Below are positions 25,225-61,820 of a stretch of 64,000 nt of DNA, piece after piece (the first letter of the stretch is position 1; every line of letters starts with the position of its first letter). The position numbers were made by a program, and so were the translations under genes. A model generated the notes under the pieces. The model was not told the DNA's origin. It was given only the letters and a program-made list of their open reading frames with translations, and ran no database searches. The stretch is taken from contig OZ024743.1 in NCBI GenBank assembly GCA_964016885.1, positions 9,052,001-9,116,000 of the forward strand, read 5' to 3'. Origin of the DNA: Eledone cirrhosa (taxonomy: Eukaryota).

Positions 25225-25539
25225 TGAAGTAATTCCATCGGAAAAGTCCAGGAAAAAAGAGTGCTCTATGTATGCAACAGAGCTTAATTATTATTATTAT
25301 GTAATAAACAACATAAGGCAATTATTCCATTTACCAGTGGTTTCTTAAAAGCAAAAGGTTTTGCTTTCAATCCTCAGAATGAAAAATCCTGGTTTGTTTA
25401 TTGAATATGGATTCTAAAAATTCAATAAACAAACCAGGATTTTTCATTCTGAGGATTGAAAGCAAAACCTTTTGCTTTTAAGAAACCACTGGTAAATGGA
25501 ATAATTGCCTTATGTTGTTTATTACATAATAATAATAAT
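25225..25539 (-). mobile_element. Fold-back hammerhead-bearing element in (TA)n (Penelope-like pLTR remnant or non-autonomous derivative)
   Basis: 120-bp IR arms 25287-25406 / 25420-25539 with a 13-nt spacer; the long arm continues to a 3' hairpin motif and (TA)n at 25225. Confidence 0.85.
25442..25501 (+). ncRNA. Type I hammerhead ribozyme motif (mirror copy on - strand at 25325-25384)
   Basis: Stem I TTTCATT/AATGGAA; core CTGAGGA (25449-25455); ~11-12-bp stem II TTGAAAGCAAAA-CC-TTTTGCTTTTAA; GAAA (25482-25485); stem III CC-ACT-GG; cleavage triplet GUA ending at 25494. Confidence 0.85.
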
Positions 25540-26919
25540 AATATATATATATATATATATATATATATATATATATATATATATATATATATATATATAT
25601 ATGTATATATATATATATATATATATATATATATATGTATATATATATATATGTATATATATATATATGTATATATATATATATGTATATATATATATAT
25701 GTATATATATATATATGTATATATATATATATATATATATATATATATGTATATATATATATATATATATATATATATATATATGTATATATATATATAT
25801 ATATATATATATATATGTATATATATATATATATATATATGTATATATATATATATGTATATATATATATATGTATATATATATATATATATATATGTAT
25901 ATATATATATATATATATATATATATATATATATATATATATATATATATATGTATATATATATATATATATATATATGTATATATATGTATATATATAT
26001 ATATATATATATATGTATATATATATATATATATATATATATATATATATGTATATATATATATATATATATATATATATATATGTATATGTGTATATAT
26101 ATATATATATATATATATGTATATATATATATATATGTATATATATATATATATATATATATATATATATATATATATATGTATATATATATATATATAT
26201 ATATATATATATATATATATATATATGGGGTGTTATATCTATGTATATTTATATTTATCATAATACATGTATATATGTTGTATATATATATGTACAGTAT
26301 ATATTATACATATGTACATTTCTCTCTCACTATATATATATATATATATACTGTATATATATATATATACATACATACACACACACACACACACACATAT
26401 ATATATATATATATATATATATACATATAGGCAATCACAATGTATGTTATTTTTAGGTTAACCCATGAATAATATCAAGAGAAAGAGTGAATTACAGAGA
26501 CGGGAAGTAAATAGATTGAACTGGTCGATAATCAATAATTATTTTGACGGTAGGAAGTAGCTGAGATATCAGAACACTGGACTCAAAGCAACACCGTATT
26601 TACATTTGTGTCTTTTGGTTTAGGGTCGGACCCTATCAGATTAAAAGGAATGGAAAGGTCCCTTAACTTATGTTGGAGTCGCAGGGCACTGTTCAGACAC
26701 ACGACATGTCCTAGACATTTTAAACATAGCAGAACCTATCTCTCTTCACGTCGGAGTATAGTCGACGTCTTCCTGAGAAGGTATGTGTGTGTGTGTGAGA
26801 GAGAGAGAGAGAGAGAGAGAGAGAGAGAGAGAGAGAGAGAGAGAGAGAGAGAGAGAGTGAGCGAGAGAGAGAGAGAGAGTGAGCGAGAGAGAGAGAGAGA
26901 GAGAGAGAGAGAGAGAGAG

Positions 26920-27050
26920 AAAAAAATCGACCCTAGTGTGTTATTTATCAACCTCCAAATGATGAATGGCAAAATTGACCTCGGCGGAATTTGAACTTGG
27001 AACGCATTGAGCCGGAACAATTATCGAAGCATTTAATCCTTGCGAATTCG
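26920..27050 (-). mobile_element. Degenerate SINE family A
   Basis: GGCAAAATTGACCTCGGCGGAATTTGAAC. Confidence 0.6.
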
Positions 27051-27359
27051 CTTTCTCATGTCAGACCAGGGATTGCTTTTTGTCCGTCTATGATCAATAA
27101 TAAAGCTATGAATAGAATATTGCGCATATAGTTTTCTACTATAATAAAAGTGTTGTTGAATTTATGTAAGAATTCTATATGAATTGAGCTAAGAGGGAGA
27201 GGTCCCTTACTGGTAGCTTCATCGACTGGAATAGCAGCAAATACCCTCAAATCTCACACCGTCGTCTTAAAAAATGCTAAATACATTCGGTAATGTTGTC
27301 TAATATACACAAACTCTGAATAAAAAAGACTGGATGTTCACAAATGGAACACCCATGAT

Positions 27360-27633
27360 CAGGGTCTTCATTTGCCTTAAAAATGTGAGGGGGACAAACC
27401 AACATTTGTTGATTCTTAAAGGAACATGTTAGTATTGCTTATGGTGCCTTTCCCGGACCCTATCACATAAGTAAGATTTTACGGTAATTAAATTTTATAT
27501 ATTCAAATGAAGTTCAGATATAAAAAAAATAAGCTTAAAAAGAATTTATTATATCAAAAAAATAAAACATAGACGTTTGAAAAAGTGGAGGGGGGGATTT
27601 TCCCCCTGGTACCCCCCTGAAACAAGGCCCTTG
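27360..27633 (+). mobile_element. hAT-type MITE family M8, copy 2
   Basis: Homologous to 22459-22747; perfect 8-bp TSD CCCATGAT (27352-27359 / 27634-27641). Confidence 0.9.
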
Positions 27634-60620: not shown

Positions 60621-60660
60621 ACGAGCTGAGGATCCGATAAGGTGAAACAATTGTTCTCGT
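60621..60660 (+). ncRNA. 40-nt minimal type I hammerhead ribozyme motif
   Basis: Stem I ACGAG/CTCGT; CTGAGGA (60626-60632); stem II T-CC-GATAA-GG-T; GAAA (60644-60647); palindromic stem III ACAATTGT; triplet GUU ending at 60655. A deleted relative lies at ~61012-61037. Confidence 0.78.
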
Positions 60661-61297
60661 TATGGTGAACTAACTGTTGTGTAACCTCTTCTCTCTCTCT
60701 CTCTCTCTCTCTCTCTCTCTCTCTCTCTCTCTCTCTCTCTCTCTCTCTCTCTTTATATATATATATATATAATTATATATATATTTATATATATATATAA
60801 TTATATATATCTTTATATATATTTATATATATATATATATATAATTATATATCGAGCCCTCTTTGGATTTTAGTCTACAATTTTATTATTATTACTATAT
60901 ATTACTATATATTTATATATATATATATACATATAAATATATATTTATATATATATATATACATATAAACTGAACTATATATATTTATATATATATATAT
61001 ACATATAAACGTCTGAGGTGAAACAAATTGTTCTTGTGTGTGTATATACGTACATACATATATATATATATATACACATACACGACCTCCTCTCCACATC
61101 TGAATACAGTCAATTTCATCCAGAATAAGGAAGGAGAGTGATAGAAAGGAAGTGGGAAAGATATATATGAATAATCGACCTCAGTACTGCTCTGGTATTC
61201 TTTTATCGACCTCGGAAGGTCGATAGGAAAAGTTGGCCTCGGTGGGAGTTGAATTTAGCGCGTAGAGAACCAGAACGAATACTGCAATGTATATATA

Positions 61298-61648
61298 TTT
61301 ATTAAGAAAAACGATGTTTCGTTTACGTGTATTTAGTTTTTTATTGCGTATCGACCGGTTACGTGCGTTTCACAGCGGATTGGTTCGAGTCACCCATAAA
61401 AGTTATGGACCCGAAACAATTATCGATCTGCTGCTCAGAATGACGATTCAACGTTGAGGATCAGATCGATAATGGAGTCGGGTGACTGAGCCAATCCTCT
61501 GCGAAACACGCGTAACAGGTCGATACTTAAAAAAAAAGTAAATACATTTAAAAGAAACTTCATCGTTTTTCTTAATATATACACTCTGCCTGTACATCGA
61601 GTGCTCTTTTGCTAGCACCACCAGTAATTCACTGAATTACATACACTA
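61298..61648 (+). mobile_element. Older fold-back element in TA with the shared 3' hairpin
   Basis: Imperfect IR TATTAAGAAAAACGATG (61300-) / CATCGTTTTTCTTAATA (-61577); GAAAC-ACGC-GTA at ~61503; ACTCT...ATCGAGTGCTCT at 61583. Confidence 0.7.
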
Positions 61649-61683
61649 TATATATATATATATATATATATATATATATATAT

Positions 61684-61820
61684 ATAAATGACTTCTACAG
61701 GAGTAGAACAACTTCATTCGTATGATGATTTCATACGAATGAAACAGTTCTAGTCATGTAGCAGTCATTTCTATATATAATAAAGATGCCTATACTCTAC
61801 CAACGTATTGAATACCTTTA
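61684..61820 (+). mobile_element. Fold-back element of the 39733 family
   Basis: IR centred at ~61726; ATGATGATTTCATACGAATGAAACAGTTCTAGTC; AATAAA; ACTCT...ATTGAATACCTT. Confidence 0.72.

Follow-up and report, generated by a model that had tools for sequence, protein, structure and literature searches.

A conserved hairpin motif beside the insertion ends of Hydra-clade Penelope-like elements in Eledone cirrhosa

Introduction

Penelope-like elements (PLEs) of the Hydra clade are defined by a C-terminal GIY-YIG endonuclease and the protein marks RWK, DKT, CxCX5C, CxxC and CxH, and the available part of their description also reports insertion into (TA)n, a hammerhead in the pseudo-long terminal repeat (pLTR), partial tandems, an inverted truncated copy and a one-sided tail (Craig et al. 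2021, PMC8557442). Here we analyse a window of 64,000 nucleotides from the 3.0-Gb genome of Eledone cirrhosa (C4:9,052,001-9,116,000; contig OZ024743.1, assembly GCA_964016885.1), AT-rich animal DNA with microsatellites throughout, in which a short hairpin motif recurs at the ends of elements that resemble the Hydra clade in these respects. Hairpins are not mentioned in the available part of that paper, where the tails measure 30-40 nt and are ascribed to endonuclease resolution; the tails here are about 60-130 nt long, and the units of one carrier, family A, measure 3.5 kb.

The second close system is Poseidon of Anolis, a PLE of another clade (Frangieh et al. 2024, PMC11167929). As far as the accessible text goes, reverse transcription starts at two internal sites that lie past the hammerhead and bound the tail, both strands are extended, a dimer is predicted and the target is AT-rich. 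These starts fall inside the open reading frame (ORF), with an AC-rich stem-loop and no homology to the target, and no conserved positioning signal is named there; in the elements described here the starts would lie in the 5′ untranslated region (UTR), next to a conserved hairpin and a TA-like stretch.

Structured RNA signals near the start of reverse transcription are also described outside PLEs. The stringent long interspersed nuclear elements (LINEs) ZfL2-1, ZfL2-2 and UnaL2 have a protein-recognised RNA stem-loop near the reverse transcriptase (RT) start, which in the available accounts is a single hairpin 5′ of the start that is copied and whose loop gives family specificity (PMC4176376, PMC1636434). 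Unlike these, the present elements encode a GIY-YIG endonuclease and have two hairpins 3′ of their ends, each 3′ of its presumed start and uncopied by it; their loops are free and their base is shared. Telomerase RNA, in the part of the literature at hand, places a repeat-complementary primer-pairing region beside a protein-bound helix with a conserved base, and in this it is alike; its template boundary helix precedes the template on the 5′ side and halts synthesis (PMC4993307), whereas the hairpins here are 3′ of the start and HP1 (defined below) would be copied through when synthesis starts at site 2. The likeness comes without demonstrated sequence or structure homology to the telomerase RNA helix. 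Finally, the minimal hammerheads of PLEs and non-LTR retrozymes (PMC4209133, bioRxiv 10.64898/2026.07.22.740005, PMC7229834) occupy the same region of the element; the hairpin lies outside the ribozyme, has no catalytic core and is unmentioned in the available parts of those papers. The full-text literature that we searched, which leaves subscription papers, Repbase notes and supplementary figures outside, held no description of the motif, in agreement with an earlier sequence-only reading of the window that knew of none. This is apparently an undescribed cis RNA motif in a known clade.

Results

Oriented motif, far above background

The sequence-only reading had listed ten instances of the consensus RCTCT...HGAGY-RCYYT, taken as one 3′ hairpin generally 30-55 nt before a (TA)n run. 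In what follows HP1 and HP2 are the first and second hairpins 3′ of the hammerhead and 5′ of the start codon, and site 1 and site 2 the insertion ends just 5′ of HP1 and HP2. With a relaxed consensus nine of the ten instances were recovered in place and on the proper strand, while at 36781 only the 3′ half is present, the 5′ arm being missing; the strict consensus is found in seven and fails at 36261 (which ends ATTTC), at 61794 (GAAT) and at 36781. All ten point toward the (TA)n run, as had been claimed. The claimed spacing also stood for most of them (27-54 nt in eight of the nine full instances, 43 nt at 36781), the exception being 61794 with 12 nt; the chance that the next (TA)n run lies 25-60 nt from a random position is 0.057. 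Two further instances, at 34336 (+) and 43998 (-), were absent from the first list.

The motif exceeds background by a wide measure. Sixty block-wise dinucleotide shuffles of the window gave no strict match and a mean of 0.03 relaxed ones, and the strict pattern matches the E. cirrhosa genome 97,433 times (48,693 + 48,740) vs 11 times (7 + 4) for the reversed pattern.

Carrier elements

Loci around the genome matches contain head-to-head fold-backs with a one-sided extension, hammerhead cores and, upstream, remnants of RT and endonuclease. The carriers were assigned to Neptune from these remnants, a guess that was replaced by Hydra after the frame of family A and the clade definition were compared. 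Intact tandem copies were recovered by a protein search. Family A (41438, 59394 and probably 36781) has a unit of 3.53-3.54 kb, including a 3′ UTR of 1.2 kb, which exceeds the clade size of "generally" under 3 kb. Its single frame of 784 codons has YRDD at 415 and VIY/YIG at 658/673, together with RWR, DKT, CxCX5C, CxxC and CxH; no CCHH motif was seen in this protein by eye, and a Pfam search with it gave no match. Families B (39860, with 61794 in the B group), C (25283, 30809), J, M (34336) and N likewise belong to this type. Frames are full in A, B′ and M and partial in B, C, J and N. The N-terminal motif is RWK in C and RWR in A, B, B′ and M; DKT is present in A, B, B′, C, J and M, the CxCX5C linker in A, B′, M and N, and the endonuclease CxxC and CxH in A, B′ and M. 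By these sequence marks the motif carriers traced to an ORF are Hydra-clade PLEs, and the carrier families also share the insertion into (TA)n.

The families had been regarded as otherwise unrelated. That does not hold for the ORF-linked ones, which belong to one clade and have proteins 36-52% identical to one another, while the DNA around their hairpins gives no BLAST match in eight of ten family pairs and a match at the coding start only in the other two. Because the proteins retain this identity and the surrounding DNA has no similarity, the carrier families are old paralogues. For families D and G, as for 36261 and 43998, the architecture is the same and no ORF is linked: in D one read-through copy (L387) has a decayed HP2 and an ATG, without ORF match, and the RT remnant found with G (L394) is on the opposite strand.

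A profile of 60 proteins retrieved 98 further Hydra-type loci, 80 from metagenomes and 18 from genome bins, and none in viral contigs. Those of their ORFs that bear the motif share a median identity of 48%. An RT tree of 44 rows, made by a quick method, covers E. cirrhosa and these loci only. The 18 genome-bin contigs (L220-L237) are filed under bacteria and encode Hydra-type PLEs, probably through host contamination.

A predicted hammerhead core, recognised by its sequence pattern, occurs in copies of B, C and M and in those of D type. Among 27 3′ instances of the metagenome and genome-bin loci it is present in 23, and in 22 of the 27 it ends 45-69 nt before HP1. The pattern search found no canonical core in family A, the commonest carrier among the matches listed, where a GAAA sits instead in a perfect small hairpin (L065:2180-2290; window 41369-41437).

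Hairpins are also found in arrays. A 58-bp satellite at C1:14.23-14.27 Mb (L083-L113) has many units made of HP1, part of the tail and the TA patch, and arrays of 73 and 80 bp occur at L353 and L350. At C2:169702714-169703477 the family C junction is repeated five times at a spacing of 183 nt, with a similar short tandem in L122; both are possible non-coding, retrozyme-like derivatives that keep the hairpins.

Two hairpins in the full-length element

Full-length elements contain two hairpins between the hammerhead and the start codon. The single 3′ hairpin of the first description is replaced by this pair: the motif seen in the window is the first of the two, and its distance to (TA)n is the spacer up to an HP2 that was not copied. 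HP2 begins 78 nt after HP1 in full-length copies of family A, is found in A, C, J, M and N, and is decayed in D. The metagenome and genome-bin loci hold 32 pairs, 57-83 nt apart, in which the upper stem of HP2 opens with C-G in 30 and an ATG follows HP2 after 15-33 nt in 28, HP1 being 100-150 nt from the start codon. Forty of the loci have an intact N-terminus and sufficient flank, and at least one strict hairpin is present in 31 of them. Long loops occur in HP1 of family M, in HP2 of family C, and in J and N.

For family C a second hairpin was predicted past the tail, and 171 genome matches indeed run on into RCWCC (control 0), 22 of 28 such loci closing a long hairpin with TT-GAGC. Outside E. 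cirrhosa the motif is visible by eye in the available published consensi of coral Hydra-2_Amil and sea cucumber Hydra-1_Ajap (twice) and Hydra-2_Ajap; in those of Hydra-1_Amil and Hydra-1_Obim no clear copy was seen, and in that of Hydra-1_Crog a variant only. Two genome searches for the pair were uninformative. The first was swamped by the 58-bp satellite; the second, which missed B, C and M since their HP2 or HP1 is reduced or long, gave 66 matches vs 117 + 2 in the reversed control and hence no evidence.

Inserted copies end beside the hairpins

Inserted copies end a few bases 5′ of HP1 or HP2. In families A, B, B′, M and N, 145 of 147 TA junctions fall at most 20 nt 5′ of HP1 (68) or HP2 (77), with offsets that peak at -8 and -6; families C and D add 22 of 24. 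Over all mapped (TA)n junctions this amounts to 167 of 171, mostly 5-9 nt from the hairpin (duplicates removed; J gave none, and two references with TA-run artefacts were left out). An unbiased check, free of motif-based choice of loci, is provided by public-run contigs: on family A they break into (TA)n at 2286 and 2366, leaving 5 nt up to HP1, which starts at 2292, and 3 nt up to HP2, which starts at 2370, and summed depth drops more than 100-fold beyond HP2. A pattern upstream of HP1 has 25,881 genome matches, and among the matches listed nearly all turn to TA at site 1; since the pattern excluded canonical read-through, it informs where ends fall and not how often. In the metagenome and genome-bin loci 17 of 30 alignment ends (rows of query L226 left out as a TA artefact) lie at most 11 nt 5′ of a hairpin, and the other 13 comprise seven short cross-family hammerhead matches, one TA artefact and five ends elsewhere.

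The bases from -9 to -4 before the hairpins match (TA)n at 4.0 of 6 positions, vs 2.7 and 2.4 in control windows, and 24 of 78 such patches score 5 or more of 6. In 21 of 22 head-to-head pairs of family A, HP1 is present on exactly one arm.

Fold and covariation

The consensus reads GCUC, a variable stem-loop, U-H, GAGC and ACU-N-U. Its fold consists of a 4-bp GCUC/GAGC lower stem, a 2-nt bulge on the 3′ side and a covarying upper stem, with an inner length of 8 to about 67 nt. The motif was found in 52 of the 98 metagenome and genome-bin loci. A sequence-only pattern hit their 5′ flanks 64 times (51 per 10 kb), their 3′ flanks 27 times (7.6) and ORF spans 20 times (1.1 per 10 kb, several of them tandem junctions), with three hits further out; on the antisense strand there were 17 (0.5 per 10 kb).

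The 52 loci yield 82 distinct flank hairpins. With a bulge of 2 nt, 76 of these have a Watson-Crick first upper pair, vs 11/82 at 3 nt and 13/79 at 4 nt, sizes 0 and 1 being constrained by the sequence anchor. Pairs 2 and 3 hold in 61/79 and 45/54, where the maxima of 5,000 shuffles were 49 and 35. G-U outnumbers A-C in the upper stem (18 vs 5), which favours the sense strand. In E. cirrhosa the first upper pair holds in 121 of 136 hairpins. A MAFFT alignment not fitted to structure (53 of 66 eligible instances) pairs in 98.7% of its cells with 42 double changes; none of 500 shuffles came as high and slid partners pair at 20-58%. These shuffle statistics ignore relatedness, hence they are not probabilities. 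RNAalifold on the same alignment returned the invariant lower stem only. A covariance model trained without E. cirrhosa (R2) placed eight of the ten listed window instances in its top ten, the other two being 34336 and 43998, and gave six window instances at E<0.001 vs three for R1, a control with mis-registered structure.

The structure first drawn differs from this one. Covariation between ACTC/GAGT and GCTC/GAGC had been claimed, and it exists at the first pair of the lower stem in E. cirrhosa (136 distinct hairpins: 89 A-U, 36 G-C, 11 other); the main covariation lies in the upper stem above the bulge, the lower stem being nearly invariant elsewhere (GCUC/GAGC in 77/82). A-U at the base of the lower stem is a feature of E. 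cirrhosa; L222 and the HP2 of the B group have an A-U swap at pair 3. The downstream RCTCT had been offered as an alternative partner for GAGY. It was rejected, the required ACTC following in 43/82 only and the pairing closing a loop of 2 nt. Loops of UUCG are found in families D and M and at locus L148. Rfam 15 gave no match at gathering score with six full-junction loci; in the window the best 150 of 346 matches were all below gathering, nearly all of microRNA type on repeats and fold-backs.

A motif-free PLE in the same window

A Neptune-type family in the window has the CxxC linker, an endonuclease of CCHH type (both read by eye), a TA target, a hammerhead, two ends and a tail of about 62 nt. 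No motif was found around either end of it. Different small stem-loops follow each of its ends, and its ORF bears an asparagine/threonine-rich insert (36410-36619, 58262-59200; L276, L302); Neptune elements may have a clade-specific counterpart of the motif. For Naiad and Chlamys no 8-mer hit in the consensi forms the motif at an end, with the limit that line breaks may hide some hits; a hit in Naiad_Mmer, in mid-UTR and without the ACT flank, was taken as chance.

Other features of the window

Table 1. Hairpins, hammerhead cores and insertions in the window
Feature	Position	Strand	Evidence
HP1, family C (Hydra-clade PLE)	25258..25283	-	consensus match; model R2 E 2e-7
Head-to-head insertion of family C: inverted arm stops short of HP1; direct arm contains hammerhead core, HP1, tail	25219..25542	-	
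Hammerhead core in family C direct arm	about 25341-25377	-	
HP1 of family-C-like end; other repeats replace the upstream part	30784..30809	-	consensus, R2
Long-loop HP1, family M	34336..34386	+	R2 E 0.012
Hammerhead core, family M	about 34275-34298	+	
HP1-type hairpin, 5-bp upper stem; family without traced ORF	36261..36291	+	R2 E 0.72
HP1 3′ half in family-A-like fold-back (about 36640-36836)	36778..36790	+	
HP1, family B; fold-back 39728-39924	39860..39883	+	consensus, R2
Hammerhead core, family B	about 39791-39813	+	
HP1, family A	41438..41466	+	consensus, R2
Family A head-to-head insertion: inverted arm to site 1, direct arm to site 2 (HP2 uncopied)	41318..41512	+	
HP1, further family with different 3′ flank, ORF untraced; relative L248 has second hairpin	43998..44036	-	R2 E 0.61
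HP1, family D (UUCG loop)	46391..46415	+	consensus, R2
HP1, family A, G-U first pair	59366..59394	-	consensus, R2
HP1, old family G (fold-back 61296-61648); ORF unlinked	61583..61607	+	R2 E 0.098
Decayed HP1 (GAAT), family-B-group end	61794..61818	+	relaxed consensus; missed by R2
Neptune-type PLE ends, motif-free control	58262..59200 and 36410-36619	.	hammerhead, two ends, tail

A rearranged inverted piece of the 43998 family (44100-44153) ends just past the 3′ half of the hairpin, against the rule for ends given above. At 62886-62984 a SINE-like repeat forms a perfect fold-back, and another copy of it interrupts the family-C-like end upstream of 30809. A non-LTR retrotransposon, which we take to be Dong/R4-like, has an ORF of 654 amino acids with RVT_1 at 41822-43786 (+) and a second 3′ piece at 34714-35484 (+), both within (TAA)n runs. 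An exon-like frame 10 kb 5′ of the window (L071), presumably carboxylesterase-like, ends in FWTNYAKTG and suggests that the window lies in or beside a gene.

Discussion

The sequence-only reading had proposed a cis RNA signal recognised by the RT and endonuclease. What the sequences give is a cis signal that is conserved, has a fixed orientation and a hairpin fold, goes together with PLE ends, hammerheads and (TA)n, and is plausibly read by the protein with these activities. We propose a model in which each hairpin docks the RT-endonuclease and sets one of the two starts of reverse transcription that make the PLE tail, and we regard it as probable, with ample room for doubt. In the model, the protein would ignore the loop and recognise the basal stem (GCUC/GAGC), the bulge (U-H) and the ACU that flanks the hairpin on its 3′ side. 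The endonuclease would cut (TA)n and the 3′ end of the cut would pair 4-9 nt 5′ of the hairpin, where the bases are TA-like, and prime cDNA. A start at HP1 would give a tailless copy, whereas a start at HP2 would copy HP1 and the spacer, that is, the PLE tail as it appears in the window. Two subunits using HP1 and HP2 on opposite strands of one cut would produce the head-to-head pairs with a tail on one arm. The Anolis PLE, with two internal starts on either side of the tail, extension of both strands and a predicted dimer, offers a precedent (PMC11167929).

Several observations weigh against the model. Judged by position only, docking of the RT looks the same as processing of the RNA or cleavage of the DNA, and the motif or site 1 guided the choice of many E. 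cirrhosa loci. The junction offsets range from -17 to 0, and of the 30 alignment ends in the metagenome and genome-bin loci only the 17 counted above fit, the five elsewhere being unexplained. The lower stem does not covary outside E. cirrhosa (0/4 pairs); because of this it may be read as sequence. Folding of the single strand is weak (z above -1 in 6/9 full window hairpins), and the bulged form is the minimum-energy fold in 2/9. A strict match is missing in 9/40 loci with intact N-terminus and only 21/40 have both hairpins, several of the misses being truncated or variant. HP2 of the B group is reduced to GCAC/GUGC without an upper stem, yet the end is kept; family N, with another bulge and flank, and the 43998 family, with another flank, also deviate. 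The sole RNA run found barely touches the element (share 0.06). In the Neptune-type family two ends and a tail occur although the motif is absent, so the motif is no general cause of PLE tails. Lastly, the start site of Frangieh et al. is, in the part of the work available, without homology to the cut DNA, unlike priming at a TA patch (PMC11167929).

A DNA-level alternative, which we consider unlikely, is that the hairpins fold in a sense-strand single-stranded DNA intermediate, and that the insertion is resolved when the GIY-YIG endonuclease cuts just 5′ of them. The G-T wobbles suit sense single-stranded DNA as well as RNA, and the lower stem and flank are conserved as sequence. Published views lean the same way in their available parts: the tail of the D. 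virilis element is needed for endonuclease recognition (as cited in PMC11167929), and Craig et al. hold endonuclease resolution responsible for the tail (PMC8557442). On the contrary side, the Anolis PLE makes both ends in vitro by RT initiation on RNA (PMC11167929, available text). The TA-like stretch at a fixed distance suits priming. So, too, the UUCG loops in D, M and L148 point away from DNA, UUCG being an RNA-favoured loop.

Slightly less credit is due to the idea that the hairpins are 5′-UTR operators for translational feedback or assembly of the ribonucleoprotein, the ends being set by nearby TA-like bases alone. The regular distance from HP2 to the ATG would agree with it, as would the C-G opening of HP2, by which the two hairpins differ, and the persistence of site 2 beside the reduced HP2 of the B group. 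The same end, though, also adjoins HP1, which lies far from the start codon, and the AT-rich 3′ UTRs are full of TA-like stretches, yet nearly all junctions adjoin a hairpin. An operator role can coexist with docking.

Improbable in our view is RNA processing or termination just 5′ of the hairpins, with RT then starting from the new 3′ ends in the manner of ordinary non-LTR elements. It predicts the same genomic ends, and RNA nucleases are known to cut at a fixed distance beside a bulged stem. Against it, the template for site 2 would be lost with a cut before HP1, although both sites are used in head-to-head pairs, and the Anolis PLE, in the accessible part of the study, starts internally on unprocessed RNA (PMC11167929). 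An inherited leftover or coding constraint (ATH-GAG-YRC = Ile-Glu-Tyr/His/Cys) without structural function has hardly any likelihood: all ORF-linked carriers do belong to one clade, but the non-coding surroundings have lost all similarity between families while the upper stem covaries, and a coding constraint was rejected for the position upstream of the ATG and the absence of frame bias (13/22/20).

The docking model admits a more specific form, in which a duplicate telomerase-like module would unite an alignment patch with a bulged hairpin bound by a TRBD-like N-terminus, and a dimer on HP1 and HP2 would prime both strands of one (TA)n cut. We put it forward tentatively and think it rather doubtful. 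The AlphaFold model of a relative, P0018 (pLDDT 91), has TERTs as its best Foldseek matches, with a root-mean-square deviation of 4-9 Å; TERT alignments reach model residues 1-10, while those of group II intron RTs begin near 57 or later. The Z scores, about 12-16, are common to many RTs, and no solved structure matched the protein by sequence. The AlphaFold model thus gives a weak hint of a TERT-like RNA-binding N-terminus, which would also favour the docking model in its general form.

Among mobile elements PLEs have the RTs nearest to telomerase, and how their internal starts and the one-sided tail are determined is, in the available part of the Anolis study, a standing question (PMC11167929). 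A short motif found clade-wide a few bases from both ends makes the choice of start directly testable. With about 97,000 strict matches in the E. cirrhosa genome, it is also an annotation marker for Hydra-clade ends and a candidate for the smallest cis element on which a compact RT-endonuclease acts. If the duplicate telomerase-like module were true, it would explain the one-tailed head-to-head insertions of PLEs and provide a portable signal of about 30 nt making any RNA a template.

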